Below, piece by piece: positions 6,596 to 36,416 of a stretch of 60,999 nt of DNA. The notes under the pieces are model-generated. The model had not been told where the DNA came from. It searched no databases and saw only the letters and a list, made by a program, of their open reading frames with translations. Position numbers and translations under genes: made by a program. Source of the stretch: Gammaproteobacteria bacterium (GTDB lineage: Bacteria > Pseudomonadota > Gammaproteobacteria > GCA-001735895); assembly GCA_050295575.1 (NCBI GenBank), contig JBNKPX010000006.1, positions 1-60,999 of the forward strand. The letters run 5' to 3'. How positions within the stretch are numbered: position 1 is the first letter of the stretch; every line of letters begins with the position of its first letter.

Positions 6596-7441
6596 TCAGT
6601 ATAGCTGAAAGCTTAATAACCCGGGTGGCTGCAGGTTGGAATACATGCTTAGACCGCAGGAAATATGGCCGCGATGGCTGAGCTCAATTTTTTCATGTGA
6701 TAAAAATATTTCACGGTCATCCGTGTAAATGTAGCTACCGTTTGAGCTATGGTCTTCAAAATAAATAGTATTGTAGTTTAGCTGGATAGTGGCATGGTTG
6801 CGTGATATTTGATCGCTATCAATAAAGATATCTGAGTTGCCTGACCTGCCGATCTGGATAATGGTATTGCGAGATGAGCGGAATAGCTTGGTTTGCTCAT
6901 CAAACTTAATCCTGAAGGTCATTTCACATGCCTTAGCCTTTGTAATATCTTCATCATCATCTAAAGCAATGCTGATCGAATTATCCTCGTCACCACGTAA
7001 AAAATAGTTTACGTCAGGGTTGCTGGAGATGTATTGCTCTACCAGATCAGCATCAACTCGGCTCAGCAGCATTTCATTCTTACGTGATGCGAAAGATAGT
7101 TTGGTGGCAAAATTCACAGCTTCACCGTAAATTTGGTCCTGGTGAATAAAGTAATCACCCATACACAGGCTCGATTTTATGCAGATACTATTGCCATTGC
7201 AGGGTTTGTCCTTGCGGGATGTGATGCGCAGTATAGAGATTAAAAAGTCTAGCGCCTGATATAGGTTTTCGAAGGTTAAGATCGATTCGTCAAAAATATC
7301 AATGTGGTTGAGCGGTGTGATCTGCGACCTTTCTTTTGCTGCTCGAAAGATACTTTTACGTAATTCAATATATTCTGATGTTTCGTCAAAAGGTGAAAAG
7401 CTAATTGTCGAAACGATTCCGTTTTGTTGTTGTATGTTCAT
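6596..7441 (-). CDS. FHA-domain protein with an N-terminal degenerate class III nucleotidyl cyclase domain
   Basis: C-terminal FHA motifs IGRS, QISRNHATI and DHSSNGSYI. N-terminal cyclase-like segment IYGEAVNFATKL...NEMLLS. Confidence 0.8.
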   Translation of the reverse strand: MNIQQQNGIVSTISFSPFDETSEYIELRKSIFRAAKERSQITPLNHIDIFDESILTFENLYQALDFLISILRITSRKDKPCNGNSICIKSSLCMGDYFIHQDQIYGEAVNFATKLSFASRKNEMLLSRVDADLVEQYISSNPDVNYFLRGDEDNSISIALDDDEDITKAKACEMTFRIKFDEQTKLFRSSRNTIIQIGRSGNSDIFIDSDQISRNHATIQLNYNTIYFEDHSSNGSYIYTDDREIFLSHEKIELSHRGHISCGLSMYSNLQPPGLLSFQLY

Positions 7442-7469
7442 ATCCTGCTTGCCACTCTTATCATTTTTA

Positions 7470-8057
7470 TTAGCTGCTTTTTAACAGTAAAGGAATAGTT
7501 GAAAAGTTGTTTTTAATTTCTGTAACAATATCGGAGTTAGCCTGTTTAACAAATAAGGAGGTATTGTGGTTCATCTTATTTCCACGGTAGGCTGCGAAAT
7601 TCTTTTGAAAATCTACGATCTGTTGATTGTCTCCGGTTAGCAGATACCAGTTAGGATTGTCGATACGATGCTGTTTTGCATAGTTTTTAAGCTCGGCTGG
7701 TGTATCGGTATCAGGATCAATGCTGATCATAGCTATGATGGTGTCTTCTGGCAGATGGGGTTGTATGCTCTTAAGGCTTAGAGTAGTGGTGGTGCATATG
7801 GTTACACAATGTGTAAAGAAGAAGGCAAAAACGACATTTTTGTCAGTATTAAACAATGAGTCGAGAACTACTGCTTCGTTGTTCTGGTCAATTAGACTGA
7901 TATTCGGGAAGCTATAGCGAAATTTGCTGGCAGGGGAGGGGGTGGCGGATACAAAGACCAGGTTGTTCCCTGTGGTAACCAGGCTGCTCAGATCGAAAGC
8001 GGCAAGATTAAAGCAAAATGAGACCAGCAAGGTCGATAAAAGAATTTTATCTCTCAT
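7470..8057 (-). CDS. SCO1/SenC-family copper chaperone, exported
   Basis: Signal peptide, FFFTHCVTIC (CxxxC), ISIDPDTDTP and WYLLTG, and a distal His in NKMNHNT. Confidence 0.92.
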   Translation of the reverse strand: MRDKILLSTLLVSFCFNLAAFDLSSLVTTGNNLVFVSATPSPASKFRYSFPNISLIDQNNEAVVLDSLFNTDKNVVFAFFFTHCVTICTTTTLSLKSIQPHLPEDTIIAMISIDPDTDTPAELKNYAKQHRIDNPNWYLLTGDNQQIVDFQKNFAAYRGNKMNHNTSLFVKQANSDIVTEIKNNFSTIPLLLKSS

Positions 8058-8119
8058 ATGTGGCTCACCTCCCGAGAGCGATATTTAACGCAAAAATAAC
8101 GACAAGGATACGTCTGGAG

Positions 8120-8138
8120 CGTGAAAATTACGTGAAAA
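8120..8138. promoter_or_regulatory. Direct-repeat site (11-bp period), candidate OmpR/ColR-family binding box
   Basis: CGTGAAAA-TTA-CGTGAAAA in the divergent promoter region between sco and the 1855-aa gene. Confidence 0.45.
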
Positions 8139-8263
8139 ACCATGGGCTTAGGTGGACCTGGTTCACGAATTTGCAATAAAAAACCTGCAATTCCAAATGC
8201 ATTTATACCTACCTCTAACTGCGTAAATATCTACCCGGTATTACGCTTATACATTATTAGATA

Positions 8264-8280
8264 TGCGGCAGATTGTCGCA
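8264..8280. promoter_or_regulatory. Candidate RegA/PrrA(RoxR)-type box
   Basis: TGCGGC-AGATT-GTCGCA, an imperfect palindrome matching the GCGNC...GNCGC RegA/PrrA pattern. Confidence 0.5.
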
Positions 8281-8412
8281 CTAAAGCCTGTGTTCTACGT
8301 ATATCACCCCTTTACATTCCCTTCTATTATGACTTCCATCAAAAATTGTTTGGGCTGTGCGCCCTGATTTTGAATAGGCGATACAAGTGATGAATGTTAT
8401 GAGGATAACCTA

Positions 8413-11400
8413 ATGAGTAAATCATTAATGTATGAAAGGTTGGTTAGACCCATAGTGGCAACGGCAATGTTTGTCGGGATAAGTGTATCCCAGCAGGCGA
8501 GTGCAGCTACTCTGACCATAAACACAGAAAATAAGGCAGGTCTATCAGCCAATGTCGGTTTCCGCTACCTGGTTGAAGAAGACACCATGTATAAGCCAAC
8601 ACCGGGTACACAGGATAATCAAAGCCTGTCATTTCAATTTCATCGTAGTCATACCCCTGTTGTGGTGGGGGCAGATGGACAGGGTATCCATGGAGAAACC
8701 GCTGCGGGCGAAACTTCAGCGGTCGTTGAGGTTCCTGATAACGGAAATTATTTTGTTTCAGTGCTTCCTTATAAAGGCCATGCCTTGGGTGGTGTGGCGG
8801 TTCAGGTAGGTACGGATCCTGTTACGGCGACGGTTCGTGTAAACGACTACCCAATCCCTACTGCGCAGATCAGTATTCAGGTCTTTGAGGACAATAGCCC
8901 AATTAATGGTGCAATAGACCCAGGTGAACGTGGATTAAATGGTTCCATAGTTGGTGTCGATGGTGAGAAAAAGTTTATACCTTTCCATGTGACTCTGGAA
9001 GATCCAGCGGGCCAGTATGGTGCTGGTGGTGGTCGCGTAGCTTCCGATGCCTACGGCAATCCGTTGGGTACTGATTACTCCGGTATGGATGCAAACGGTA
9101 AGCCTATTGTGAGTTCATATCCTGCTGGTTACGATACCAATGGTATGATTGTTAACCCGGGTGCGCTGACTCCTGGCTCGGTCAAGCTGGTACCTAACGA
9201 TCAGGGTTATCTGGTTATCAAGAACCTGCGTCCTGGTAAGTATGGTGTCATCGTTACTCCTCCAGCTGGTGCCGGATGGAGACAGACTACCTCTATTGAA
9301 GGTACGTTTGTTAACGATGCCTGGGTTAAAGCAGGAAACCCTGAGGTGTTCGTTGAATTTGGTCCTCCAGGCCCTCATGTGGCCGTCGGTTTTGTGCGTG
9401 ATTTTGACTGTATCAATAATTCAAAAATTGATCACACGTCAATTGACCCAGACCTCAATCCCTGTGTAGGTTATATACCTCCTGCAGCAGGAACTGGTGC
9501 GACTATTACCGGTAAGGCTGTGGACAACCATATGTCCCGCTCGCCTGATTTTCAGTTCCATCCTGGTACTGATTTTCCTTCATGTGTCGTGGGTATCAAT
9601 GAATTCACTTCTGGCCAGACCATCTATAACGGCCCCTGTACTAACTCAGCATTTACTATCGAGAACGTACCCCCGGGTCAATACAACCTTTCCATCTTTG
9701 ATGATCCGCTTGATGCAGTAATTGCAAGTCATCCATTTACCGTTGGTGGGAATGCGACTGATGGTTTCACGGTATCTGCGCTTACGATTCCTACTACTGG
9801 ATCAGACGTGAATGGCAATACCACTACAGTAGTTCCAACCTGTACAAATGCTGTCTGTGATCTTGGCGAACTGCCACTGTTCAACTGGTTTTTCAAGCTG
9901 GACACCTCAGAGTTCTTTGATCGCAACGAAAATGGTTTTCGTGATTGTGTGACTACAGCCTGTGATGATCCTGCAGTTGACGATGTACGCATGAATGCTA
10001 GCTCCTTCACCAATAATATCCGCTGGCGCGATGGTCGTATCTATCAGTCAGCAGCGGTAGACGGTGAAGGTTCTGCGCCGTTTAATCAGGTGTTCCCTTT
10101 CTTCCACTGGTTGGTTGCAGAAAGTGATTTCGCCAAGTTCAAGGCGACTGGTGCGACCATTACGGTAGACAATGGTGGTGGTAACAACACGGGTGGTGGT
10201 GCTTTAGGCGATATACTTAATCCTGCAAATGATCTACAGACTAATGGCTATATCGCCCAGTTGCAGGAAACCGATGCGAATGGTATTGCTCTGCAGCCCT
10301 GTAATGATGCCGATCAAACCCAGACTGAATGTACTCATGATGGTGGTTGGTCACTTACCGAAAAGGGTCAGGTTCTGACTCTGGGAGTGCAGGGCTTTCT
10401 GGGGCAGAAATCAGTACTGGAATTTGGTAGAACCAACTACGGTGTAAATGAAAACGGTGGTATTTCAGGTGTGGCTGTGTATGCAATCACCCGTGCTGAA
10501 CACGATCCACGTTATGCGGTAACTGAAATCTGGGAGCCGGGTATTCCTCGCGTACAGTTCGCGCTGTATCAGGATGCTGATTCAGATGGCGTTTCTGATG
10601 ACATTGATGGTGTTGCTGGTTTTATGGAATCAGACGTTGATAACTACCCACTAGGTTGGGCAACCGGTGGCGCCATGGGTCCTGAAGATATCGACCGTGA
10701 TGGTAATACAACTTTCGACTATCACGATGCGATCGACGTAACCTGGTCAGACAGCTGGGATGACAATGAGCCTACCAACTGTCAGGGTTATAACCAGATG
10801 CCTGGTATCGATGATCACCTATGCTTTGATGGTATGCGTAACTGGAACCAGGTCCGGCCAGCAGTATTTGACGGTGGTTATGCGTTCCCTAATTCACCTA
10901 ATGCTGCCAATGTAACTGTGGGTGCTGATGGTAAAGAGTATCTGACCAAGGGTTACTATGTGGTTCAGGCATTCACACCTCCAGGCTATGAGCTGGTAAA
11001 AGAGGAAAGCAAGAACGTCGATTTCGGCGATGAATATGCGATACCTCAATTGCTGCCAGTAGAGTGTGTGGGCGACCTGCATACGGTTCCTGCTCTGCTG
11101 TCTTATGTGACTGCCGCAGATGGTGTTACTCAGGTTGTTGATGGTGATCCCGCAGATTACGCAGCACCTTATGCCGGTGAACAGCGTCCTTTATGTGATA
11201 AGAAACACATCCTCCTGACCGACGGTCGTAATGCGGCTACTGACTTCCACTTCTTCACCGATGTACCTAAAGCGGCACACGTCGTGGGTGGTATCCTTAA
11301 CGATCTGGCGAACGAGTTCAATCCTAGCGCTCCAACCTTCGGCGAGAAATTCGCGCCACCCTGGTTGCCAGTGGCTTTCTATGACTGGTCTGGTAAAGAG

Positions 11401-13980
11401 ATCACTCGTGTTTATACCGATGAATTCGGTAAGTACAACGCGATGCTGCCTTCATCTAGTACAGCGAATGCTGCAAGTCCATCCGGGTATACCCCGAATA
11501 TGATTGTTTCCTGTATGAATGATGCGGGTTATGTAGATGATCCATTCAATCCTGGTAAAAAGATTGTGGATCCTAACCATAATCCACAGTACACCCAGTT
11601 CTGTTACACCTTCCAGTATATGCCTGGTGCAACAACCTATCTGGATACCCCGGTACTGCAGATGTCAGCCTTCGCGGGTTCCGGTTTGCAACTTGACTGT
11701 GAAGCTGCGGATACAACGCCTCTGATCGCTTCGGTGACTGCAGGTGCTCTGGTTGGTCCTTATATTCCAGATCAGGTGAATGGGGATCTGGCATCTCGTA
11801 CCCTGACCATTACTTCGGCAGGGTTAAGAAATGTACTGAATCCTTCATCTAATGAGCTGACTTCCAAGTTCGTAACACGTAACTACGGATTTGGTGCTGT
11901 CGAAGGTAATGTCACTCTGACGAATGAGGCGGGGCAGTCATATAATCTGGTAGGTCTTGACTGGACTGATAGTGTTATTGCTGCTCCAGTAGACGGAAAC
12001 GTGCCCAATGGTCGTTACCAGCTCACCGTAGAGAATGCTGCCGGTGTCGCTTCACCCATGGGTGTCTCTGTTATCGTTGGTCCACTACGTTATGCAGGCA
12101 GTAATGTAATTGAGGTTCATCCTAGCTCTGCTGCTGGTGCTACCCCGCTTCAGGATGCACTGGATAGCGCGACTCGTGGTGATCTGATCCTGGTAGAGGC
12201 GGGTGTTTATGATGAAATGCCTATCATGACGGTGCCGGTCTATCTGCAAGGTGCTGGGGCTTACTCCACTACGATCAATGCTCGCGCCTTACCGGCTGAG
12301 AAGGTTACCGCGTGGAAGAACAAGATTGCTACCCTGCTCGGAACACCAAATGGTTTGATTGGTGACAAGTTCGATCTGTTGCCTGGTCAGAATGCGGGTC
12401 CGATGATGTTTGATACCGAAGAAGGTCCTGGCCTGATGGTGTTAGGCAAGTCTTCTGGTGGTAACCGCTTCAATAATGGTGGAAATAGCTCTGGCTTTGA
12501 CGGTTTTACAGTCACCGGTGCCTCAACTGGTGGTGGTATTTTTGTCAACGGCTACATCAATGGCTTTGATATCAGCAATAACCTGGTTACCGGCAACGAA
12601 GGTACCTACGGTGGTGGTATCCGTATCGGTCATTACAACCTGCTGAATGGCACTGCTTACACCGATAGTAACAACGACAATATCCGTATTCACCATAACT
12701 TTGTGAATATGAACGGTACCCAGAACGGTGCTGGTGGCGGTATTGCGCTGTACAACGGCACCAATAACTACCGTGTGCTCGACAACATGATCTGCGGTAA
12801 CTTCGCAGCGACTGATGGTGCGGGTATAGGTCATCTGGGTCTGAGTTCAGGCGGTCGGATTAAAGATAACAAGGTCATCTTTAATCAGTCTTTCCGTCAA
12901 ATGCCAGGCTTTGAAACCGATGGTGGCGGTATCCTGGTTGCTGGTATGGATTCACAGGGAGCGCTTGGTCTGAGTGAAGGTTCTGGTCATGTGTTTATCG
13001 ATCGCAACCTGATTCAGGGCAACCAGGCAGGTGCTGGTGACGGTGCAGGTATCGCCTTACGTCGTACCAATGGACTGGATATTGCGGCTGACCCCGCCAA
13101 TAACCTGCCCCGTACGCCCTGGTGGCTGGTGCGTATCACCAATAACACTATTGTGAATAACGTAGCGGGTCTGGCTGGTGGCGGTATATCTCTGAAGGAT
13201 GCGCTGAGAGTTGAAATCGAAAACAACACCATTGCCAACAATGAGACGACTGGTACAGCAGGCGGTGCCTTTCAGCTCGGTGGTACACCTGGTCAATCGG
13301 CACCACATACTGCAGGTATTGCTTCGTACGGGCTTGAAACCCTGGCTGGTGTTTCTACCAGTACCATCAACCGCTTCAATAAGGCCTACTCAAACCCACT
13401 GTTGCAAAGCAATATCATCTGGCACAACAAGCAAAGCTACTTTGTGTTAAGTGCTGATGCCAATATTGCTGGTAGTTCGCTGGTGGATGCTGGATACAGT
13501 GATCTGGGCGTAGTTAATGTTCCGGGTACGCTGGATCAGATTCGCTGGAGTCTGGTAACCGATGCTACTACTGGAAACGGTGGTGTAGCTTACCCTGCTG
13601 GCTGGCACATTCAGGATGACACCGACATCGTAGCTGGTGATCTATTTGTGGCTCCATACCTGAACAGTAACCCGGGTCTCAATCCAAAGCAGGTCGAGTT
13701 CCAGACTATGATGGTAGCCCCGGCACTGGATGAGGGCGGTAACTGGATAGATGTACGCTACGCACCCTTGTCCATCAACGATGTGGATGGGCTGAATAAC
13801 GCTATTGACGTTCCATCCGACTACCACCTGACTGCTACTACAGTGGCGATAGACGCGGGCAATCCGAGACGTGGACGTCGCGGCGATGGTCTTGACATCG
13901 ACCTGCAGCCTGGTGTTGTTGACAGCGCGGCCTACATTGGTTCAGCAGTTGATCAAGGTTCAGACGAGGTGCAGCAATGA
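8413..13980 (+). CDS. Large secreted protein (1855 aa): Ig-like/SdrD-B-like repeats, IPT/TIG-like domain, right-handed beta-helix
   Basis: Sec signal ending QQASA, DxDxDG Ca-binding-like loops, many Cys pairs, repeated GGGI/N-x-I-x-x-N beta-helix coils in the C-terminal third, and a C-terminal DYHL...AIDAG...DQGSDE segment. RBS GAGGA. Confidence 0.75.
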   Translation: MSKSLMYERLVRPIVATAMFVGISVSQQASAATLTINTENKAGLSANVGFRYLVEEDTMYKPTPGTQDNQSLSFQFHRSHTPVVVGADGQGIHGETAAGETSAVVEVPDNGNYFVSVLPYKGHALGGVAVQVGTDPVTATVRVNDYPIPTAQISIQVFEDNSPINGAIDPGERGLNGSIVGVDGEKKFIPFHVTLEDPAGQYGAGGGRVASDAYGNPLGTDYSGMDANGKPIVSSYPAGYDTNGMIVNPGALTPGSVKLVPNDQGYLVIKNLRPGKYGVIVTPPAGAGWRQTTSIEGTFVNDAWVKAGNPEVFVEFGPPGPHVAVGFVRDFDCINNSKIDHTSIDPDLNPCVGYIPPAAGTGATITGKAVDNHMSRSPDFQFHPGTDFPSCVVGINEFTSGQTIYNGPCTNSAFTIENVPPGQYNLSIFDDPLDAVIASHPFTVGGNATDGFTVSALTIPTTGSDVNGNTTTVVPTCTNAVCDLGELPLFNWFFKLDTSEFFDRNENGFRDCVTTACDDPAVDDVRMNASSFTNNIRWRDGRIYQSAAVDGEGSAPFNQVFPFFHWLVAESDFAKFKATGATITVDNGGGNNTGGGALGDILNPANDLQTNGYIAQLQETDANGIALQPCNDADQTQTECTHDGGWSLTEKGQVLTLGVQGFLGQKSVLEFGRTNYGVNENGGISGVAVYAITRAEHDPRYAVTEIWEPGIPRVQFALYQDADSDGVSDDIDGVAGFMESDVDNYPLGWATGGAMGPEDIDRDGNTTFDYHDAIDVTWSDSWDDNEPTNCQGYNQMPGIDDHLCFDGMRNWNQVRPAVFDGGYAFPNSPNAANVTVGADGKEYLTKGYYVVQAFTPPGYELVKEESKNVDFGDEYAIPQLLPVECVGDLHTVPALLSYVTAADGVTQVVDGDPADYAAPYAGEQRPLCDKKHILLTDGRNAATDFHFFTDVPKAAHVVGGILNDLANEFNPSAPTFGEKFAPPWLPVAFYDWSGKEITRVYTDEFGKYNAMLPSSSTANAASPSGYTPNMIVSCMNDAGYVDDPFNPGKKIVDPNHNPQYTQFCYTFQYMPGATTYLDTPVLQMSAFAGSGLQLDCEAADTTPLIASVTAGALVGPYIPDQVNGDLASRTLTITSAGLRNVLNPSSNELTSKFVTRNYGFGAVEGNVTLTNEAGQSYNLVGLDWTDSVIAAPVDGNVPNGRYQLTVENAAGVASPMGVSVIVGPLRYAGSNVIEVHPSSAAGATPLQDALDSATRGDLILVEAGVYDEMPIMTVPVYLQGAGAYSTTINARALPAEKVTAWKNKIATLLGTPNGLIGDKFDLLPGQNAGPMMFDTEEGPGLMVLGKSSGGNRFNNGGNSSGFDGFTVTGASTGGGIFVNGYINGFDISNNLVTGNEGTYGGGIRIGHYNLLNGTAYTDSNNDNIRIHHNFVNMNGTQNGAGGGIALYNGTNNYRVLDNMICGNFAATDGAGIGHLGLSSGGRIKDNKVIFNQSFRQMPGFETDGGGILVAGMDSQGALGLSEGSGHVFIDRNLIQGNQAGAGDGAGIALRRTNGLDIAADPANNLPRTPWWLVRITNNTIVNNVAGLAGGGISLKDALRVEIENNTIANNETTGTAGGAFQLGGTPGQSAPHTAGIASYGLETLAGVSTSTINRFNKAYSNPLLQSNIIWHNKQSYFVLSADANIAGSSLVDAGYSDLGVVNVPGTLDQIRWSLVTDATTGNGGVAYPAGWHIQDDTDIVAGDLFVAPYLNSNPGLNPKQVEFQTMMVAPALDEGGNWIDVRYAPLSINDVDGLNNAIDVPSDYHLTATTVAIDAGNPRRGRRGDGLDIDLQPGVVDSAAYIGSAVDQGSDEVQQ

Positions 13981-14039
13981 AAAGTCAATTCATACACAGT
14001 TTGGATAAGGTAAACATTAAAACCGTGAGGTACGGAAAA

Positions 14040-15350
14040 ATGAAAACTTTCTTGAAATACGGGAGCTGTGCTTCGCTACTTGCGATGCTTATGTTACCGG
14101 TCTCACCCGTACAGGCCTCGGTCTTCGTGCAGTGCCCGGGTGATACAGATGGTGATGCCACCTGGAATAGTCCAGGTGAAACACAGCCAGATAACGTGGT
14201 CTGCATGCACCTGAGTAGTGGTGACGGTTATGCCAATATGGCTGATGGCTATCGACAGTATATCTTTGGCTTCGGTGATTTGACTGGTGTGCCCCCCGAA
14301 GATGCTGGCGATGCGGGCATTCTTAATGCCCAGATCTCGGCGCCGACTATCCAGTTGAGGCAGGGGGAGGAGTTTTACCTGACCCTGACCAACACCGGTA
14401 TGCTCGAGCGCCCTGATCTATTCGATGGGCATAGCGTGCATTTTCATGGTTTTCCAAATGCCTCCAGTGTGTTCGACGGGGTACCCGATGCCTCTATCGC
14501 GATCAATATGGGGGCTTCGATGACCTATTTCTACAACATAGTGGAGCCGGGAACATACCTCTACCACTGCCACGTAGAGGCGGCGGAGCACATGCAGATG
14601 GGTATGCAGGGTAACCTGTATGTTCATCCTGCACAGGATGGCACAGCCTATGATTATCCATCACGTGATGGAACCATCAGAAGCTATACCAAGTTCGCCT
14701 ATAACGATGCTGATCCAGTGAATGGTACGGGTGATCCCGGATCTACCGGCTACGATGTGGAATATCCACTACAGCTGATAGCTTTTGATCACAACTTTCA
14801 TGACAAGCATATCGCGGTGCAACCTTTGCCGTTCGCAGAGATGAAGGATGATTATCATATGTTTAATGGTCGTGGCTACCCGGCTTCGGTTCAGCCAGCT
14901 GACTATTATGTTACCAATCCAGGGGCTGCACAGACGACTATAGGCACTCGTATAGCCGATCTGGTTAATGGACAGGCTATTACTGATGGCTGGAAGCAAT
15001 CTGGAACTGAGTCAACTAACACACAGCCTTACTCGTCCAAAATAACGGTTGCAGCGGGTCAAAAGCTGTTGCTGCGTATCACAAACCTGAGTATCACCAA
15101 CTTCCATACAGTGACGGCTTTAGGATTGCCGATGAAGGTCATCGGTCAGGGTGGTCGTGAAATGGTGGATAAGTATGAAACTTCTTCGGTGAATCTGGGT
15201 GGTGGTGAAGCCTATGACGTCATCATTGATACCATGGGTATAACGCCTGGAACATACTTTGTATATACCAACGAGCTGCACCAGTTGAGTAACAGAGAAG
15301 AAAGTTTTGGTGGCGCGATGACAGAAATTGTCGTCACTCCAGCGATTTAA
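14040..15350 (+). CDS. Two-domain multicopper-oxidase-family chain A (type-1 Cu site plus 4 cluster His in domain 1)
   Basis: Sec signal (ATG 14040 preceded by GAGG; the ORF extends upstream to 13977). Motifs HSVHFHG and YHCHVEAAEHMQMGM. Domain 2 lacks Cu motifs. Confidence 0.9.
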   Translation: MKTFLKYGSCASLLAMLMLPVSPVQASVFVQCPGDTDGDATWNSPGETQPDNVVCMHLSSGDGYANMADGYRQYIFGFGDLTGVPPEDAGDAGILNAQISAPTIQLRQGEEFYLTLTNTGMLERPDLFDGHSVHFHGFPNASSVFDGVPDASIAINMGASMTYFYNIVEPGTYLYHCHVEAAEHMQMGMQGNLYVHPAQDGTAYDYPSRDGTIRSYTKFAYNDADPVNGTGDPGSTGYDVEYPLQLIAFDHNFHDKHIAVQPLPFAEMKDDYHMFNGRGYPASVQPADYYVTNPGAAQTTIGTRIADLVNGQAITDGWKQSGTESTNTQPYSSKITVAAGQKLLLRITNLSITNFHTVTALGLPMKVIGQGGREMVDKYETSSVNLGGGEAYDVIIDTMGITPGTYFVYTNELHQLSNREESFGGAMTEIVVTPAI

Positions 15351-15361
15351 TTTAGGAGAAT

Positions 15362-16807: not shown

Positions 16808-16817
16808 GAGAAACAAA

Positions 16818-23692: not shown

Positions 23693-23701
23693 CAGGATAG
23701 T

Positions 23702-25125: not shown

Positions 25126-25168
25126 AGTATCAGGGTTTATCAAATAAACATGATTGGGCTAGAAATTA

Positions 25169-29027: not shown

Positions 29028-30553
29028 AGGTAAATATTCTCCCCATAGCCGGTAAGTATTTTAACTGGTGGACTAGCACGCTTAAATCCTGCCTGCCTGC
29101 CCCTGCGCATAAGTTATTTAAAAAATATAACCGGGATGTGGAACTGATAATCCAGCATCAGAAAGATGGTATCTATTTACAGGATGGTAGCGGTCGAGTG
29201 ATCGATTCAATCTCAACCATCGATATTGATGATGACAATAATGAAGGCCTGGATGTCAACCTGTTCGAGGCGCAAGGGGAGGAAGAGGCTGAAGTCGATG
29301 CTACTCATAGAGGCCTGTACGATCGTACGGAGGTTATTCATCATGATTTCAAGAGAAGGGAGCCAGCTATATCAGAAAATGAGTTGGACGAAGTCGATCT
29401 GACCATCGATAACGATGCCACCATTGTGCTCAACAGGGATGATAAAACGGTACGTTTACTGGGCCAGGTTTCAGAGGATGATACCATCGTGATTCAGGAT
29501 GATCAGGGAACCCTGCTGAATCTGGATTCGGACTCATCGACTGGACAGGATGGGGATAGTACCGTTCTGTATTACAGTGATCGAGGTAGAATTCGTGCTG
29601 TAGAGGCTAAAAAAGATCCTGCACTTGAACAGAATATTGATTTCAACCTGTTAACGGATAATCCGAAGAAAGAAAAACAGGAAGCTACGGGAGAAGATTT
29701 TAATCTGGCAGCCGGGTTGCTATCGAAATATCCAGGAAATAAAAAATGCCTGTACCTGATTCCTGATGACCAGATTTTTTCACTGGTCTTGAATTACCCG
29801 GTAGAGGTGCTGGAAAATATTGAAAATGTATTACGTTATGATCTGGAAAAACATATACCACTAAGCTTTCAGGAGATACGTTTTTTTTATGCCTTAAATA
29901 TCAAGTCAGGCACAGGAAAGGTGGATGTGGAAGTCATTGTTATCAAGTCTACAGTGTTTGATTTGCTAGAGTCAGCGTTTGATTCTGAACGTCAGCGCGA
30001 AATTATTTGTACAACCCGCTATTTCTATCAGCACTACGGCACAAAAATAAATATGCTGGGCAATCGTAAGGGTGAAAGCCGCAATACATGGTTGACTGTG
30101 GGGAATATGCATACAGCAATTAATGTCATTCTGCTGCTGGGTGTGTTTGTGCTGCCTTATCAGTTGCATTATAGCCAATTGGCTGAGATTCAACCAAAGT
30201 CAAGTGCAGAGATTAGTAAGGCTGGAAAAATTGTTTCGACCATTAATCAGCTAAATGCTGAGATACAAATCGGTGAGAAATTAAATACGCAGATCAGTAA
30301 GGATCGCCGTATGGTGGAATTGCTGGCTCAGCTGAGTGAGCATATTGCAACGGATGCCTGGATATCGAGATTTAGCTATAAAAATGGTGAGCTCAAACTG
30401 AAAGGTGAAGCAGTTTCTGCAACCAGTGTATCAGATGATTTAAATAACACAGGATTATTTGAAAGCATCAAGTTTATTTCGTCGATAATTAAAAATCCAA
30501 ATACGAAAAGGGAGGCTTTTGAGCTGTCGCTAAAAGTAAAGTCTGATGCATAA
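29024..30553 (+). CDS. gspL: GspL/PilN-like T2SS component with an acidic insertion
   Basis: Xps-type N-terminus FNWW...L...LP, central LRYDLEKHIPL, a TM segment and a PilN-like C-terminal domain. Confidence 0.78.
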   Translation: MKVNILPIAGKYFNWWTSTLKSCLPAPAHKLFKKYNRDVELIIQHQKDGIYLQDGSGRVIDSISTIDIDDDNNEGLDVNLFEAQGEEEAEVDATHRGLYDRTEVIHHDFKRREPAISENELDEVDLTIDNDATIVLNRDDKTVRLLGQVSEDDTIVIQDDQGTLLNLDSDSSTGQDGDSTVLYYSDRGRIRAVEAKKDPALEQNIDFNLLTDNPKKEKQEATGEDFNLAAGLLSKYPGNKKCLYLIPDDQIFSLVLNYPVEVLENIENVLRYDLEKHIPLSFQEIRFFYALNIKSGTGKVDVEVIVIKSTVFDLLESAFDSERQREIICTTRYFYQHYGTKINMLGNRKGESRNTWLTVGNMHTAINVILLLGVFVLPYQLHYSQLAEIQPKSSAEISKAGKIVSTINQLNAEIQIGEKLNTQISKDRRMVELLAQLSEHIATDAWISRFSYKNGELKLKGEAVSATSVSDDLNNTGLFESIKFISSIIKNPNTKREAFELSLKVKSDA

Positions 30554-31148
30554 TCTTTTCGGCAACCAGAATGTAGATAAAATTATCGCCCTGACGATAC
30601 TGGCGCTATTGTTGGTGATATCATATTTGCTGTTTTCCAATCTATATCTTTCAGGGTTGAGTGAGCTTAAATCGGAGATTGAATTGAGCCGGAAAAAAAC
30701 CGGTAAAGTGGATGGTATTCTTGCTAATGAAAAAAAATATCAGCAGGAAATTAATAAGATAAAAAGTGAGTATAAGCAGTCGAGAAATTTTCTAAATAGC
30801 AATCAGCCGTCTACTGCTTCATCAGAAGTTCAAAATAAAATCAAACGTATTATTAATTCTACTTCCAGGGCAAAAATTATCTCGCTGAAACCGTTTCCGG
30901 TGATACAGCATGAGGGATATAGTGAAGTGTCTGTTGAGATTCGTATGAAGGATATAGGACACAAGGAAATCAGGAAAATGCTGTATGCTATTGAAAGTCA
31001 ATTACCGCTGATTATCATCAAGGAGCTGGATATCACGCGTACGCAGTATTCCTACAAATCAATTCTTGGTGCTGCGGCAAAAGATAAAAATGATTTAAAT
31101 GTTACTCTGGTGGCGAGTGGGTTTTTCAGGGGGGCACGTAATCAATGA
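30546..31148 (+). CDS. gspM: T2SS protein GspM
   Basis: N-terminal TM segment, coiled coil, LYAIESQLPLIIIKEL, and position after gspL. Confidence 0.8.
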   Translation: MHNLFGNQNVDKIIALTILALLLVISYLLFSNLYLSGLSELKSEIELSRKKTGKVDGILANEKKYQQEINKIKSEYKQSRNFLNSNQPSTASSEVQNKIKRIINSTSRAKIISLKPFPVIQHEGYSEVSVEIRMKDIGHKEIRKMLYAIESQLPLIIIKELDITRTQYSYKSILGAAAKDKNDLNVTLVASGFFRGARNQ

Positions 31149-31173
31149 GAACCGAAGTCAGGCGACCTAAGCC

Positions 31174-31629
31174 ATGAAATTAATTTTCTCAGCAATTATG
31201 CTCGTGGTTATTGCTTTAGTGTATCTTTACCTGGCTGATTCATTATCAGAAAAACCAACAGTCACTCATGAATTAAATCTTGATTTGGGTAAATCCCGGG
31301 CTGCTGTCAAGAAGCTGGAAAGTATCAGTCATTATAATTCGATTATTGATCGACCATTATTTGTTGAAGAACGACGATTTGAAGAAGAAAAAAAGCCGGT
31401 AACAATCGTCAAACCTGTGGCAGTTATTGAAAAATTAAATGTTAAGGCTTTGGGTATTGCTCTTTCTGGTGAAGGGCTCATAGCCGTTTTGACCGATAAA
31501 AAAAATGGGAAAACCTTAAGGATGAGAATAGGTGAAAAAATCTACGGGTGGACCTTGAAGGGCGTTTCAGAATCCAGTTTTACTTTTTCTAAGGGTGGAA
31601 AAGAAAAGGTGGTTAATTTTAAAGAATAA
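31174..31629 (+). CDS. T2SS GspC/N-like protein
   Basis: TM anchor, IDRPLF...RR motif, GE-x-I-x-GWTL. Lies between gspM and gspD. Confidence 0.65.
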   Translation: MKLIFSAIMLVVIALVYLYLADSLSEKPTVTHELNLDLGKSRAAVKKLESISHYNSIIDRPLFVEERRFEEEKKPVTIVKPVAVIEKLNVKALGIALSGEGLIAVLTDKKNGKTLRMRIGEKIYGWTLKGVSESSFTFSKGGKEKVVNFKE

Positions 31630-31641: not shown

Positions 31642-33738
31642 ATGTTACGTGTTAATAAGAAAAAGCATATTAGATGCATATTTACAATAGGGCTAATATC
31701 CTTATTTACATTTTTATCGGGCTGTTCAACGCCTAACGGTCCTACTTATAAGGTGGAGGTTAATGCAGCAGGGGTTCCAGAAATTATCACTTATAATGAT
31801 AAGGGAGAGAGGGTCGCTGATGGGGCCAAAACTAATTCACTGGGTGCAGTGTATAAGTATGGGAATGGAAAAATTGTAAATGCTCCATCAAAAAGGAACT
31901 ATAGCAAAAAAGCTGGTGAGTACAGTCTGGACTTTGTGAAAATTGCGATTGAAGAATTTCTCTCTATCGTATTTAACGATATGCTCGGGAAAAACTATAT
32001 TCTGGACAGTACCATCAAGGGTGAGGTGACGGTTCAGACCAAAGGTCGGGTGAATGCTACCCAGTTGCTCTCTATCGTTGAAAGTGTACTGGCTTCCAAA
32101 AATGCGGTCATGGTCAGTAAGGATAACCACTATGAATTTATACCTCTGAGCAAAGCCAAAAATTACTCCTTAAAACCTGAACTATACAGTGCCAGGAATC
32201 TGGAAGCCGGTTTCAGAATGGTCATCATCCCGGTTAACTATCTGAATCCGGATGATCTTAAGCCTATTCTGGACTCTGTTGCCCCCGGCGCAGGCCATCT
32301 TAAGATTGATAAGGCGCGACGGGCCGTCGTGATGACAGGTACCGCACAGGAAATAGAGAATGTTGTCAATGCAGTACAGATCTTCGATGTCAGCTGGCTG
32401 GCGTCGAAATCGGTTGCATTACTGCCCGTTATCAATACACAGGCTTCAATTGTCCAGAAAGAAATTGTCAAAATTCTGACTAGTCAGAACAAGGATAATA
32501 GCATCGTAATTGATACCTTTGAGCGCTTTAATGCACTACTGGTAGTTGCAAGCAAGAAGAATGAGGTTGAAGCGGTTAAAAGATGGCTAGATGTGCTGGA
32601 TGTTGAAGTGCCTACCGCCGATACCCAGTTATTTGTATATAATGTTCAAAATCGAAAGGCCAGTGAGCTGGCTGATATGTTGAACAGTATTTTTGGTGAT
32701 GCTCCTGCTGGGATAGTTGCACCTGGTAATGCAGGTAAAACTAACACTGTTTCCAACAAGGAAGTGGTTGTCAGTAATAAAACCACCGCTTCTAAGGTAG
32801 CTGCCAGAAAGGTGAGTGCTCAGTCTTCTGGCTCTAATCTTAAAATTGTTGCGGATGAAACCAATAACGCAATCGTAATCCTGGCAAAGAAATCTGAGTT
32901 CGACAGCATCAGGAAGGTCCTCAAGGACCTCGATACCCTGCCGCTTCAGGTCCTGATAGAGGTTTCTATTGTTGAAGTAACGTTAACCGATGAGTTAAGT
33001 TATGGTCTGGAGTGGTATCTGAAAAAGAATGGTGTTAGCGGCGGTAAGTATGACGTTGAATCAACTCTAGATGTGAACTCAGGTTCTGGAATTGGACCTA
33101 TATCGCCAGGATTATCCTTGCTGCTGAGCGGTACTGGAACCTTAGTGGATGCAGTGTTTAATACACTTGCTGCGGAATCAAAGTTGAATGTGATCTCCAG
33201 TCCATCATTAATGGCGCTGGATAATCATACCGCGACTATCCGCGTCGGTGATCAGCAACCAGTCCAGGTTTCTGCTGCCAAATCAACAAACAACGATGTT
33301 TTGACGCAGTCGATAGAATATAAGAGTACGGGTGTGTTATTGTCTGTAACACCCAGAGTGAATTCTGGTGGCCTGGTCACAATGGAACTGAGTCAGGAAG
33401 TGACTGATGTGGGTAGTATTGATGATGCTACCGGTCAGCGCAGCTTTTTGCAGCGCAATATCAATAGTACAGTAGCAGTGCAAAATGGCAGAACGATTAT
33501 ATTGGGTGGTCTGATTACGGAAAATGCCAGTAATGGTGAGAGTGGTATTCCTGGGTTACATAATATTCCTTATGCCGGAGGCCTGTTTGGTAAGACCTCA
33601 AGCTCCAAAATAAAGAGAGAGCTGATCGTGCTGATTACGCCTAAGGTCATTTTCAATCATCAGGATGCACTGGATATCACTCAGGAGTATGCTGAAAAAA
33701 TGGAATTACTAAAATCATCTCTTGATGTTAAACAGTAG
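31642..33738 (+). CDS. gspD: T2SS secretin GspD (predicted lipoprotein)
   Basis: Lipobox LSGC, N0-N3 domains, secretin motifs QVLIEVSIVEV, IPGLHNIP...GGLFG and ELIVLITP. Confidence 0.95.
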   Translation: MLRVNKKKHIRCIFTIGLISLFTFLSGCSTPNGPTYKVEVNAAGVPEIITYNDKGERVADGAKTNSLGAVYKYGNGKIVNAPSKRNYSKKAGEYSLDFVKIAIEEFLSIVFNDMLGKNYILDSTIKGEVTVQTKGRVNATQLLSIVESVLASKNAVMVSKDNHYEFIPLSKAKNYSLKPELYSARNLEAGFRMVIIPVNYLNPDDLKPILDSVAPGAGHLKIDKARRAVVMTGTAQEIENVVNAVQIFDVSWLASKSVALLPVINTQASIVQKEIVKILTSQNKDNSIVIDTFERFNALLVVASKKNEVEAVKRWLDVLDVEVPTADTQLFVYNVQNRKASELADMLNSIFGDAPAGIVAPGNAGKTNTVSNKEVVVSNKTTASKVAARKVSAQSSGSNLKIVADETNNAIVILAKKSEFDSIRKVLKDLDTLPLQVLIEVSIVEVTLTDELSYGLEWYLKKNGVSGGKYDVESTLDVNSGSGIGPISPGLSLLLSGTGTLVDAVFNTLAAESKLNVISSPSLMALDNHTATIRVGDQQPVQVSAAKSTNNDVLTQSIEYKSTGVLLSVTPRVNSGGLVTMELSQEVTDVGSIDDATGQRSFLQRNINSTVAVQNGRTIILGGLITENASNGESGIPGLHNIPYAGGLFGKTSSSKIKRELIVLITPKVIFNHQDALDITQEYAEKMELLKSSLDVKQ

Positions 33739-33759
33739 AACGCGGTTAGTGGCTTTAAT

Positions 33760-34407
33760 ATGAAAATTAAATCAGTTTACATCGCAGACACCGAGACAAT
33801 CTTCACTGACTGCCTGGCAACCAGTCTGGAGCTGACTCAGCAGTTTGAAGTGATTGGTATTGGCAGTAGTGGTTCGACGGCTTTTAACGAGATTCGCGAG
33901 AATATTCCTGATCTTGTCATAACCGATTTAAATCTGGGCGCATTGAGCGGGATTAACCTGATACGCAAAATCAAGGCTAGCGGGCTGCCTTCGAAAATTA
34001 TACTGTTATCTTCTGATATAACGCCACCTGTTATCCATAAGGCTCTGAGTGCGGGTGTGGATGGCATTATTCTGAAGTATGACCATTATTCCTTACTGCT
34101 TGAAGCGATCAGTGTTATCCACCAACGCAAATTTCTCAGTCCTGGTATATCCGATCCATTAGTGAATAACTTTCTGAGTTTTAATAGTGGGTCGTCTGAT
34201 CATAACAAGGTTTCCCCTCTATCTGATAGAGAGGAGCAGGTGGCAAAATTAATCGGCGATGGTATTAGTAGTAAAGAAATAGCGGAAGTGCTTTCGATTA
34301 GTGAGAAAACGGTCAGTAAGCACCGCAGTAATATCTTTAAGAAGTTACAGATTAAAAATACTGCCCAGCTGGTTAAGTATGTTTATGACAATAATCTGGT
34401 AGGTTAG
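33760..34407 (+). CDS. NarL/LuxR-family response regulator
   Basis: Receiver domain with PDLVITD. LuxR HTH LSDREEQV...ISEKTVSKHRSNIFKKL. Confidence 0.93.
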   Translation: MKIKSVYIADTETIFTDCLATSLELTQQFEVIGIGSSGSTAFNEIRENIPDLVITDLNLGALSGINLIRKIKASGLPSKIILLSSDITPPVIHKALSAGVDGIILKYDHYSLLLEAISVIHQRKFLSPGISDPLVNNFLSFNSGSSDHNKVSPLSDREEQVAKLIGDGISSKEIAEVLSISEKTVSKHRSNIFKKLQIKNTAQLVKYVYDNNLVG

Positions 34408-34459
34408 AACTTATTGATTTATTCGTCTTTGACTATGCAGTCGTAATTCTGAGAAAAAT

Positions 34460-35143
34460 ATGAATATATTACTTGTCGAAGATAATCATGACCTTGCGCT
34501 CAATGTAACGGAATTTTTTGAGAGAAAAGGTCATATCATAGATTACGCTGCGGATGGTCTGTCAGCATTGAATCTGGTTTTAAGGCAGACCTATGAGGTT
34601 ATTATTCTGGATGTCATGTTACCTGGTATGAATGGACTTTCTTTTTGCCAGCAATTACGTGAGCATTACGAACTTGATACGCCGGTCATTATGCTGACCG
34701 CCAAAGATACCGAAGAGGATAAATTAAAAGGATTTAAAGTGGGTACAGATGATTATCTGATAAAACCATTTTCACTGCCCGAGCTGGAAGCTCGCCTGCT
34801 ATCATTAATCCGGCGCAGTAACCGCCAGTTATTCGGTAAGAAAAAACTGATTGTTGAAGATCTGGAGTATTCACCGGACACTATGAAGCTAAAGCGTGGT
34901 GGTACCGAATTGTCCTTAAAACCAATCCCATTAAAAATCCTCATTATCCTGATGCAAAACTCTAACCGAGTGGTCACTCGGCAGGAGATTGAACAGCAGG
35001 TATGGAATGATGAGCCTCCCGATAGTGAAGTGTTACGCTCACACATCTATGCAATCCGTAGTGAAGTTGATAAAAAAGGCGATAAAAAGTTGCTTCAGAC
35101 TATTCGCGGTGTTGGCTACAGGCTCGCCATTGATGAGAGTTAA
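34460..35143 (+). CDS. OmpR-family response regulator, ColR-like
   Basis: ILLVEDN, ILDVMLPG and DDYLIKPF, with winged helix PPDSEVLRSHI...TIRGVGYRL. Confidence 0.92.
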   Translation: MNILLVEDNHDLALNVTEFFERKGHIIDYAADGLSALNLVLRQTYEVIILDVMLPGMNGLSFCQQLREHYELDTPVIMLTAKDTEEDKLKGFKVGTDDYLIKPFSLPELEARLLSLIRRSNRQLFGKKKLIVEDLEYSPDTMKLKRGGTELSLKPIPLKILIILMQNSNRVVTRQEIEQQVWNDEPPDSEVLRSHIYAIRSEVDKKGDKKLLQTIRGVGYRLAIDES

Positions 35144-36416
35144 GTACAAACTGCATAGTCGCATAGCGCGGAAAATGCTCTTCCTTGCAGTTTTATCGAC
35201 TATTGCTTATTCAGTCTTTGTTGTCATGTTGGTGAATCGGCTGGAGCTCCTGATGGTGACCACCTTGCTGGGCCATGAGGCTTCTGAAATGGTCGTCGAG
35301 TTACAGCATAATCCCGATATTCCGATGCCTAGATCTGCATCGATACAGGCATACCGATTGAGCGAAGATAATACCATTCCTATTCCGCAGTATTTAAAAA
35401 AGCTCGATTATGACGGTTATGTAAAGGTAGAGCATCAAGACAGAAGTCATCATGCTACCGTGGTAGATCTGTTAGATGATCGTATCTATATTTCATTTGA
35501 TACTACCGATATTAATAAGACATTAGCGCTGTTACAGGCGATTTTGATTGGTGGCGGTTTCATCTTTGTCATTCTAATATTCGCCAGCTGGTTCTGGTTA
35601 ACCAAAAAGTTTGTCGTGCCAGTTTCTACGCTGGCTGAAGAAGTGGCCTCTCTGGATCCCAATGTGCGTAATATTCGCATCGAAGAAGGCTATAAGGATT
35701 ACGAGGTTGGCATTATAGCGCAATCTTTCGATCAGTTTCTGATACGTATGGATGAATTTGTTGAACGAGAGCAGTCCTTTTCGGCAGCTATCAGTCACGA
35801 GTTACGCACACCGGTTTCAGTTATTGCAACGGCACTAGACCTGCTGGAGCTGGATGGTGTTACCGAGCAGCAACAAGGGGTAATTAACCGTATACGCTTC
35901 TCAACAAATTATATGCAAAAAATGATAGAGTCACTGCTGTTTTTTGCCAGAAATTCGGATGAAAAGCTTGCTATCTCCTTGAAAAAAATCAGCCTGAAAG
36001 AGGTATTTGAAGAAACGCTTACCCAATATAAGGATCAGGCAAGCATTAAAAAATTAGACCTGCTGCTAGAAGTGGAGTTTGATACCGAAATCAGAATGGT
36101 AGAGAACCATATTCAAATTATCCTGGGTAATTTAATTCAAAACGCAATCAACAATACCACCGTTGGCAGTATTCAGGTGGTGCTTAAACAGGATGGTTTT
36201 TGTGTCATAGATACCGGGCATGGTATCGGTAGCAATGAAACCGATCTGGTAGTTGAGCGTTGCTATCATGGCCCGGATAGTGATGGCTGTGGACTAGGTC
36301 TCTATCTTGTGATGAAAGTTTGCAAGGTGCACGGGCTTGATTTAAAAATAGACAGCCAGCTGGGGCAGGGTTCCAGTTTCTGCGTTACCTTTCCGCGACA
36401 GCTGATTGTTCAATAA
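35133..36416 (+). CDS. Sensor histidine kinase, ColS-like
   Basis: Two TM segments, HAMP domain, H-box SHELRTP, N-box NLIQNA, G-boxes DTGHGI and GLGL. Overlaps the stop codon of the response regulator. Confidence 0.92.
   Translation: MRVKYKLHSRIARKMLFLAVLSTIAYSVFVVMLVNRLELLMVTTLLGHEASEMVVELQHNPDIPMPRSASIQAYRLSEDNTIPIPQYLKKLDYDGYVKVEHQDRSHHATVVDLLDDRIYISFDTTDINKTLALLQAILIGGGFIFVILIFASWFWLTKKFVVPVSTLAEEVASLDPNVRNIRIEEGYKDYEVGIIAQSFDQFLIRMDEFVEREQSFSAAISHELRTPVSVIATALDLLELDGVTEQQQGVINRIRFSTNYMQKMIESLLFFARNSDEKLAISLKKISLKEVFEETLTQYKDQASIKKLDLLLEVEFDTEIRMVENHIQIILGNLIQNAINNTTVGSIQVVLKQDGFCVIDTGHGIGSNETDLVVERCYHGPDSDGCGLGLYLVMKVCKVHGLDLKIDSQLGQGSSFCVTFPRQLIVQ

Follow-up and report, generated by a model that had tools for sequence, protein, structure and literature searches.

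A candidate locus for an exported multi-subunit multicopper oxidase whose copper ligands are split between two chains

What would a bacterium make from three multicopper oxidase (MCO)-like chains encoded side by side among the genes of a type II secretion system (T2SS), and where would the product act? We have analyzed a locus of this kind in a stretch of 60,999 nucleotides (contig JBNKPX010000006.1 of assembly GCA_050295575.1, a Gammaproteobacteria bacterium), which we call the window and which is one of the 319 contigs of a metagenome-assembled genome (MAG) that is 74% complete. The locus (6596-36416) has 23 genes over ~30 kb, called from a listing of open reading frames (ORFs) together with Pfam and NCBIfam scans. 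An earlier note on this DNA had named an SCO chaperone, a secreted protein of 1855 amino acids (aa), three MCO-like chains, a gspE-D operon, an S8 protease, a cytochrome c and two regulatory systems, contiguous and mostly co-oriented. All these elements were found in their places, the plus strand carries 21 of the 23 genes and the intergenic gaps are small, except for the 202 bp between MCO3 and gspE. We hold with moderate confidence that the locus encodes an exported multi-subunit MCO together with its maturation and export machinery.

The three MCO-like chains follow each other on the plus strand, MCO1 at 13977-15350 (its true start is likely M22, about 14040), MCO2 at 15362-16807 and MCO3 at 16818-19205, and each consists of two cupredoxin domains. 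MCO1 (Cu-oxidase_3, Cu-oxidase and Cu-oxidase_2) and MCO2 passed the Pfam gathering scores for Cu-oxidase domains. MCO3 had a weak match to Cu-oxidase_3, 22.3 bits with a cut-off of 21, and carries C-terminal Big_9 (E 2.4e-42) and Cadherin_4/5 domains. Comparison with hhalign joined MCO3 to MCO2 (probability 100%, E 1.7e-54) and MCO1 to MCO2 (probability 99.85%, E 1.4e-30), and by this sequence comparison the three chains are paralogues, with identities of 25-28%. The best PDB profile match of MCO1 was 3g5w, a two-domain MCO (E 9.4e-20), with 2zwn at E 3.8e-17; for MCO2 it was ascorbate oxidase, with 3g5w and 2zwn ranking second and third.

The conserved copper ligands of the chains complement each other. 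In the N-terminal domain of MCO1 the residues H152, H155 and H157 (HxxHxH), H197, C198, H199, H205 and M210 were invariant among 35 sequences, as were C53 and C76, and its second domain has no conserved copper ligand. MCO2 is the reverse case. Its C-terminal domain has H293, H296, H298, G299, W454, H455, S456 and H457 invariant among 35 sequences (97-99% conserved in 79), and its first domain has Q-A-G at the position of the H-C-H of MCO1 and no type-1 cysteine. MCO3, with a C-terminal part of variable length and 324-1234 aa overall across loci, showed no conserved copper ligand among 76 sequences, where only H208 (93%) and M169 stand out. Thus, the four copper-ligand motifs (HxHG, HxH, HxxHxH and HCH..H..M) never occur in one chain and are complete only across MCO1 and MCO2. 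Judged by the canonical MCO motifs, MCO1 has the type-1 site plus four of the cluster histidines and MCO2 the other four, the HxHG and WxHSH forms of the latter being typical of a laccase first domain. Since the ligands are split between MCO1 and MCO2, no chain alone can build the trinuclear cluster. The proposal that the architecture differs from that of single-chain enzymes therefore holds up and has been sharpened to a specific one, in which the copper ligands are divided between chains.

In order to look at the pairing, mature MCO1 (48-457) and mature MCO2 (30-481), each given as an alignment, were modelled as a complex in three runs with three controls. The model score was 0.89 (runs 0.89, 0.89 and 0.88) and the best control reached 0.00; the 0.89 mark is reached by 58 of 80 solved complexes and by 2 of 110 mismatched pairs. 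Contact agreement between runs was at least 96% and the pLDDT of the partner at least 91. The modelled interface includes residues 157 and 199 of MCO1 and 296, 298 and 457 of MCO2, that is, five of the eight proposed cluster histidines. The ligand pattern, read from the alignments, is evidence independent of this model.

Two-domain MCOs (N. europaea 3G5W, mgLAC 2ZWN and the SLAC-type laccases) are among the closest known systems for comparison. They also have two cupredoxin domains per chain, and their trinuclear cluster is located at the interface between domain 1 and domain 2 of neighbouring chains, an arrangement that is found here in the MCO1-MCO2 model only. Known two-domain MCOs are homotrimers in which every chain has all the ligands, giving three active sites. 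Instead of identical chains and three sites, here we find three diverged paralogues with one ligand set in total, spread over two of them, and a third without ligands; the mature chains are also longer, about 410-450 aa compared with about 300. Ceruloplasmin and the MnxG of Bacillus have six cupredoxin domains and a single trinuclear cluster at one domain interface, as we propose for this system. All six domains are on one chain in those proteins, and spread over three chains here. Bacillus Mnx is moreover a multi-protein complex, as would be the case here, although its accessory MnxE and MnxF have no counterpart at the locus. A heteromeric two-domain MCO was not described in the literature that we searched, which did not cover subscription journals.

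Upstream of MCO1 is the gene for the 1855-aa protein (8413-13980, plus strand), for which Pfam gave no family above cut-off and a phmmer search against PDB sequences only a chance-level match. It has a Sec-type signal peptide, as judged by eye, and its Atlas neighbours contain SdrD_B, fn3_3, CarboxypepD_reg and Beta_helix domains and include SdrD-B-like proteins. Residues 1230-1855 (the last 626) gave an AF2 model of a right-handed beta-helix (pLDDT 83, pTM 0.88). Its best Foldseek match was the A-module of AlgE4 (E 1.3e-5, TM 0.32/0.49), with PL6 lyases, tailspikes and the adhesin PfbA ranking next; on these models the PDB matches are generic (TM 0.2-0.5). We also considered NosD and rejected it, the score being weak (E 6.8e-4, 18 bits with a cut-off of 300) and the Foldseek matches of the beta-helix being generic and not to NosD. 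The modelled features suggest a secreted scaffold or adhesin-like protein, with an array of beta-sandwiches followed by a C-terminal beta-helix.

The connection of this large protein to the oxidase comes from gene fusions. In three loci (L052, L100 and L062, two from Steroidobacteraceae and one from Gallionella) the large protein and MCO1 are fused in frame with no signal peptide in between; a fourth candidate was ambiguous. In addition, 129 proteins of 801-2285 aa match MCO1 at E up to 1e-40. By hand count, ~79 of the 120 long homologues listed combine SdrD_B, fn3_3, CarboxypepD_reg or Beta_helix with Cu-oxidase domains, one of them from the isolate Methyloprofundus sedimenti, and many representatives longer than 1900 aa have the MCO1 match at their C-terminal end. 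Fusions this frequent (a Rosetta-stone pattern) speak for the large protein as a subunit joined to MCO1. Among the MCO1 homologues there is also another group of ~800-840 aa (P0165, P0179, P0183, P0191, P0199 and others) with PAP2 (PF01569) and PF22778 and without scaffold domains, and one homologue, P0171, is fused to an alkaline phosphatase domain.

If these proteins work together, their genes should be found together in other genomes. A scan of species-representative genomes with the MCO1 alignment found at least 574 related stretches, and a search of 1.84 billion representatives gave 239 clusters at 50% identity (E up to 1e-30). We took the best 80 loci with flanks of up to 10 kb and compared them by tblastn with the 23 proteins of the locus. 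Matches were found in 80 loci for MCO1 and for MCO2, in 79 for MCO3 (the lone exception is a 2.6-kb contig), 73 for the large protein, 57 for the 149-aa protein orf149, 52 for the S8 protease, 39 for SCO and 35 for the cytochrome. The figures fall to 23 for the LuxR-type regulator, 12 for gspG, 6 for the FHA-domain protein and 4 for the histidine kinase. They are all lower bounds, because many loci stop at a contig end or at the 10-kb limit. The core is thus the large protein, the three MCO chains, orf149 and the S8 protease, commonly in the order large protein-MCO1-MCO2-MCO3-orf149-S8, to which a SCO-cytochrome pair is usually added before or after. Within these best 80 loci the core spans Gamma- and Betaproteobacteria, Nitrospirota, Desulfobacterota-type lineages, Acidobacteriota, Planctomycetota and Bdellovibrionota. 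Carriers include Gallionella, Sideroxyarcus, Thiobacillus, Sulfuricella, Rhodoferax ferrireducens, Methylocaldum, Methylomagnum and Methyloglobulus, as well as Thioploca, Candidatus Thiodiazotropha, Desulfuromonas, Desulfococcus, Phycisphaeraceae and the isolate Amphritea pacifica ZJ14W.

Close relatives preserve much more than the core. Among 40 related genomes, 11 had a strong MCO1 match (E below 1e-80), the MAG of the window counted, and 8 of these were among the 13 genomes of the genus. We fetched up to 36 kb around 8 MCO1 matches. All 23 genes were present in identical order in the five congeners whose contigs span the locus (G001, G003, G006, G010 and G011), and three shorter contigs carried partial stretches colinear with it. 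Conservation of the order of 23 genes in all five spanning congeners puts this organisation beyond chance. The co-occurrence of the components elsewhere, the test that the earlier note had set, is thus found at two scales, as 23 colinear genes within the genus and as a core in 80 loci that represent diverse phyla. The locus is accessory within the genus, since five congeners with a completeness of 79-95% had no strong MCO1 match. Upstream of it in the window are housekeeping genes (recA, recX, alaS, aspartokinase and a tRNA-Ser(GCU) at 6004-6094) and downstream DUF2889 and PFOR. These flanks are common only to the two closest congeners, G003 (DUF2889, PFOR) and G010 (aspartokinase, tRNA-Ser, DUF2889, PFOR), and the other three spanning congeners have different ones. 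The block therefore seems to stay intact while its surroundings change. When we looked for an empty site between tRNA-Ser and DUF2889, a DUF2889 homologue appeared in one of the five congeners without the cassette.

The secretion genes form two groups within the locus, both on the plus strand: gspE, F, G, H, I, J and K at 19408-25125 (Pfam T2SSE 2.6e-133, T2SSF, T2SSG 4.4e-37, N_methyl, T2SSJ and T2SSK), and gspL, gspM and the 151-aa orf151 at 29024-31629 (PilN, T2SSM_b and a weak XpsN match, E 9.9e-5), followed by gspD at 31642-33738 (Secretin 1.6e-45 and GspD N0). The T2SS core parts E, F, G, H-K, L, M and D are therefore all present. Against NCBIfam, GspD (415.8 bits, cut-off 351), GspM (77.7, cut-off 60) and GspG were above cut-off, and GspE (527, cut-off 630) and GspF (220, cut-off 424) below, which makes this a divergent T2SS. 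A GspC with HR/PDZ domains was not found at the locus, where there is only the XpsN-like orf151. The only prepilin peptidase found (Peptidase_A24) is on contig C22 together with the type IV pilus genes pilB and pilC. The description of the locus as self-contained consequently stands for the clustering of oxidase, T2SS, chaperone and regulators, and does not for the prepilin peptidase, which the locus lacks and which was found only with the pilus genes elsewhere. Apart from this, contig C77 of genome G000 (1067-2836) has a third GspE/PilB-like ATPase, 41% identical to the GspE of the locus, with no adjoining GspF homologue by BLAST.

Three genes of the oxidase cassette, those for orf149, the S8 protease and the cytochrome, are inserted between gspK and gspL, in five congeners as well as in the window. 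Outside the clade of the window, T2SS genes were found within the 10-kb flanks of 8 of 73 loci. We then checked 15 distant genomes by secretin or GspG family searches, in a sample that was not random since T2SS hits were known beforehand for 4 of the 15. Seven had a T2SS marker within 25 kb of MCO1, with differing gene orders: Amphritea pacifica (gspL-N-D adjacent to the core), Rhodoferax ferrireducens, Sulfuricella denitrificans (with a 15-kb gap between the cytochrome and the T2SS), L050, L054, a Gallionella and a Sulfuricella species. The cassettes of Betaproteobacteria and Nitrospirota had the T2SS order gspG-F-E...D. In a quick tree of GspE, which has several long branches, the cassette-adjacent sequences of these two groups formed one clade (SH-aLRT 100) and those of the group of the window a separate, long-stemmed one (SH-aLRT 100). 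Different types of T2SS have thus been recruited beside the same core, and on this ground we infer that the complex is T2SS cargo.

The remaining exported proteins would serve maturation and processing. The SCO1/SenC gene is located at 7470-8057 on the minus strand (Pfam SCO1-SenC E 1.3e-17); its C84xxxC88 motif and H164 were invariant in 40 sequences, and the product is predicted from sequence to be a periplasmic copper chaperone or thiol-disulfide protein. It is usually paired with the cytochrome, a 507-aa protein encoded at 27504-29027 (plus strand) in which a CxxCH motif (C53xxC56H57) and M125 were invariant among 34 sequences, indicating a monohaem cytochrome c domain. The AF2 model of the latter (pLDDT 77) has a C-terminal fold of the type-I periplasmic-binding-protein kind, with LivJ/LivK-type binding proteins and AMPA-receptor N-terminal domains as best Foldseek matches (E about 1e-7). 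A cytochrome c joined to a periplasmic-binding domain, beside an extracellular MCO and SCO, is MofC-like in the sense of He et al. 2017 (PMC5566968), the comparison with MofC being by description. The S8 subtilase (25621-27507, plus strand; Peptidase_S8 6.4e-45) has a Calx-beta domain (4.5e-17) and ends in a hydrophobic anchor; its triad of D162, H205 and S400 was conserved among 50 sequences. We rejected sorting of its tail by a GlyGly-CTERM/rhombosortase system, for which the best TIGR03902 score in this 74% complete genome was 29.4 bits with a cut-off of 84. The gene directly upstream, orf149 (25169-25618, plus strand), encodes a small, predicted secreted protein without conserved Cys, His or Met and without a family in Pfam or NCBIfam, and all its Atlas neighbours were clusters of 'hypothetical protein'. 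No twin-arginine motif was seen by eye in the exported proteins, so that copper loading would take place in the periplasm, which provides a rationale for the SCO-cytochrome pair.

Putting these elements together, we propose the following sequence of events. The large protein, the three MCO chains, orf149, the S8 protease and the cytochrome would be exported unfolded by Sec, as their signal peptides suggest, and copper would be inserted in the periplasm with the help of the SCO1 protein and the MofC-like cytochrome, as is expected from their families. Ligand conservation and the complex model suggest that MCO1, MCO2 and MCO3 would form a heterotrimer resembling the trimer of two-domain MCOs, with a single catalytic centre. 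Domain 1 of MCO1 would provide the type-1 copper site (H152, C198, H205 and M210) and the cluster histidines H155, H157, H197 and H199, and domain 2 of MCO2 the remaining four (H296, H298, H455 and H457). By analogy, the ligand-less MCO3 would close the ring and carry the Ig/cadherin-like domains, and the large beta-sandwich/beta-helix protein, attached to MCO1 as in the gene fusions, would be the fourth subunit. The folded and copper-loaded complex would leave the periplasm through the interleaved T2SS, as the interleaving and the recurrent neighbourhood of the genes suggest, and the S8 protease may process or release it for action at the cell surface or in the matrix.

What this complex would oxidise is a separate question, and we agree with the earlier note that the sequence does not reveal the substrate. 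There is prior evidence of a similar gene cluster in Sideroxydans lithotrophicus ES-1. He et al. 2017 report three tandem genes for predicted extracellular MCOs, accompanied by genes for a copper chaperone and a MofC-like protein, give no clue to their function, and state that these tandem MCOs are not homologous to MofA/OmpB (PMC5566968). In the study by Keffer et al., the cluster Slit_1812-1818 encodes SCO, a cytochrome, small proteins and three cupredoxin proteins, of which two have MCO motifs and the third, a larger one, has none; it was more abundant in late magnetite cultures than with Fe(II)-citrate, and a role in oxidising solid Fe(II) was suggested (bioRxiv 10.1101/2024.09.20.614158). 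As described there, the motif-less third protein is larger and has adhesin-like domains, like MCO3 here, and the gene content, which is all that we compared, matches the order that we found in Betaproteobacteria, MCO1-MCO2-MCO3-orf149-(S8)-SCO-cytochrome. An embedded T2SS, an S8 protease, a separate 1855-aa protein and the ligand split, all found here, are not mentioned in the accessible descriptions of Slit_1812-1818. The rest of the window ([NiFe] hydrogenase, cbb3 oxidase, PFOR and an FNR-type regulator) suggests a microaerophilic chemolithotroph. Given the Sideroxydans data and the chemolithotroph-like character of the window, we favour an extracellular metal or mineral oxidase. Oxidation would be with O2 and the substrate might most plausibly be a metal such as Mn(II) or Fe(II), the latter also in mineral-bound form, to which the ecology of the hosts and that one proteomic study give a hint.

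Other known systems resemble parts of the locus. According to the available descriptions, Leptothrix MofA-MofB-MofC and Geobacter OmpB combine, as here, an extracellular MCO with a MofC-like cytochrome/binding protein, and Geobacter also has SCO1/SenC; in contrast to the split chains here, MofA and OmpB are single large chains. The MofB-like isomerase of Leptothrix is missing from our locus. Secretion of OmpB (GSU1394, with GSU1397 and GSU1398) depends on an atypical T2SS, Oxp (PMC5566968). For Pseudomonas putida GB-1, a review lists MnxG, McoA, SCO1 genes and MnxS1S2R, and a specialised Xcm T2SS beside a second, general one (PMC13689576). As far as those descriptions go, it shares with our locus Sec-exported MCOs, adjacent SCO1/SenC genes and two-component regulation, and differs in that its MCOs are single chains, its T2SS genes are not interleaved, and neither a large scaffold protein nor an S8 protease is present.

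Several points weigh against an exported heteromeric oxidase. The MCO1-MCO2 model may pass because homotrimeric two-domain MCOs have solved structures, and so may reflect likeness to them and not binding of these copies. Eight of the 15 distant genomes had no T2SS marker at a distance of up to 25 kb from the core. No other T2SS was found in the MAG of the window (74% complete) or in G010 (99% complete), and in these two the T2SS of the locus may also serve general secretion. The electrons of an MCO go straight to O2, which leaves the role of a cytochrome c partner unexplained. Finally, the proteomic link in Sideroxydans is correlative, and our cassette is likened to that cluster by gene content.

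The points concerning secretion can be read together as a general secretion system that merely neighbours an MCO operon, the oxidase being periplasmic or bound to the outer membrane independently of it. The prepilin peptidase held in common with the pilus genes fits that account as well. It does not explain why three core genes should be interleaved between gspK and gspL in five congeners, nor why at least two GspE clades and gene orders adjoin the core in unrelated lineages. Furthermore, a second, canonical gspD-E-F-G locus is present elsewhere in four of five near-complete congeners, G010 being the one without it. The suggestion that this is not just the housekeeping T2SS is therefore upheld by those four congeners and not by G010 or the MAG itself, where the locus has the only T2SS found. 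On balance we regard a mere neighbour as unlikely.

An equally unlikely account accepts a secreted oxidase and turns it upon the producer: it would cross-link its own extracellular matrix, with the 1855-aa protein and the MCO3 repeats as substrates or anchors, the S8 protease trimming them, and environmental metals not being the substrate. The beta-helix does resemble polysaccharide-active proteins and adhesins (AlgE4, PL6 lyases, PfbA), MCO3 has Big_9/cadherin repeats and SdrD-B-like proteins are neighbours of the large protein. Nevertheless, fold matches with TM of 0.2-0.5 are generic, the fusions of the large protein with MCO1 speak for a subunit and not a substrate, and the related Sideroxydans proteins respond to magnetite.

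The regulators bring in a third possibility, copper homeostasis or resistance of the CopA/PcoA/CueO type, in which a cuprous oxidase would work with a chaperone and a two-component system that senses metal. At the end of the locus, all on the plus strand, are a NarL/LuxR-type response regulator (33760-34407; Response_reg and GerE) and an OmpR-type response regulator with a histidine kinase (34460-36416; Response_reg and Trans_reg_C, HisKA and HATPase_c), the ORF start of the kinase at 34989 being probably too far upstream. A homologue of the LuxR-type regulator adjoins the core in 23 of the 80 loci; the OmpR/histidine kinase pair is confined to the clade of the window. The best NCBIfam match of MCO1 is indeed copper_res_A (E 1.3e-18), the OmpR-type regulator and the kinase resemble heavy-metal models of the CopRS/CusRS type, and a SCO chaperone is present. 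However, all scores were far below cut-off (copper_res_A 66.9 with a cut-off of 478.95, regulator 170 with 279, kinase 111 with 293), the window showed no CopB, CopC or CopD partners, and a regulatory pair restricted to one clade does not accompany the core elsewhere. To our knowledge, copper-resistance operons do not include an adhesin-like subunit of 1855 aa, an S8 protease or a T2SS. We consider this explanation quite improbable. That the three chains are separate enzymes or homotrimers, each having its own gene and signal peptide, is hardly credible when MCO1 lacks HxHG/WHSH, MCO2 the type-1 Cys and HCH, and MCO3 all ligands, and when the three genes are together in 79 of 80 loci, the exception being that 2.6-kb contig.

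The other end of the locus has on the minus strand a gene for a 281-aa FHA-domain protein (6596-7441; Pfam FHA E 2.3e-10), without signal peptide and found in 6 of the 80 loci, all of the clade of the window. It is a probable cytoplasmic regulator; its N-terminal 170 residues had no family match, and one short stretch, judged by eye, may resemble a nucleotide-cyclase motif. Next to it the tRNA-Ser(GCU), 500 bp from the boundary of the locus, is followed by a strong terminator-like hairpin (6100-6121). No integrase was seen near this tRNA (6004-6121), where no search was made for repeated copies of its end. A scan of 5600-25500 gave 16 terminator-like sites compared with 15.1 expected by chance, the one after the tRNA being the sole convincing one, and 23 promoter-like sites compared with a mean of 37.8 in shuffles, fewer than by chance, so that no operon boundaries come from it. 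The GC content inside the locus (8001-34000) is uneven, 0.49-0.51 in the large protein and MCO genes and 0.38-0.45 in most T2SS genes, compared with 0.44-0.49 in the flanks, and this may indicate a mosaic in which T2SS genes were added to an older cassette.

Beyond the locus, the downstream part of the window has PFOR at 37458-41090 and a [NiFe] hydrogenase operon at 44131-49755, with a HycI-like maturation protease, HupH, the small subunit, a 216-aa ORF without Pfam match, a CCG/4Fe-4S protein and the large subunit. The two genes between the hydrogenase subunits recall what we take to be the Isp-type hynS-isp1-isp2-hynL layout of sulfur oxidisers. On the minus strand at 49833-54316 there are genes for a TauE/SafE exporter, an HDOD-domain protein, a PilZ protein and a MotA/MotB pair. 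The stretch 54609-60045 encodes a HemN-like radical SAM enzyme and an FNR/Crp-type regulator and has the cbb3 genes ccoN, ccoO and ccoP.

The tandem MCO cluster as such is already noticed in print and not analysed; in our literature search, which did not cover subscription journals, the Slit_1816-1818 locus tags appeared only in the Keffer study. What is new here is the split ligand set, the modelled MCO1-MCO2 interface, the scaffold subunit indicated by fusions, the module of orf149 and S8, the wide distribution and the interleaved T2SS. Tentatively, and giving it somewhat less than an even chance, we suggest that this is the first heteromeric two-domain MCO, a ceruloplasmin-like six-domain ring on a scaffold, with one active site divided between two chains, and an intermediate between homotrimer and single chain, which chemolithotrophs at oxic-anoxic interfaces would use as a widespread T2SS-exported oxidase of Fe(II)/Mn(II), dissolved or bound to minerals.

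MCOs are said to have evolved from trimeric two-domain ancestors to single chains of six domains such as ceruloplasmin (reportedly proposed by Nakamura and Go in 2005). If our interpretation is true, a heterotrimer with one site on two chains and a third, structural chain would be the missing middle step of that evolution. The interleaved T2SS would be a clean case of a secretion system specialising for a single large complex loaded with metal. With at least 574 matches among species-representative genomes the cassette is common; oxidisers of iron and of sulfur, methanotrophs, Nitrospirota and metal reducers carry it, and it has been without an assigned function. A related cluster has been linked by one proteomic study to growth on solid magnetite, and this system may therefore provide an extracellular route of metal or mineral oxidation that has gone unrecognised.

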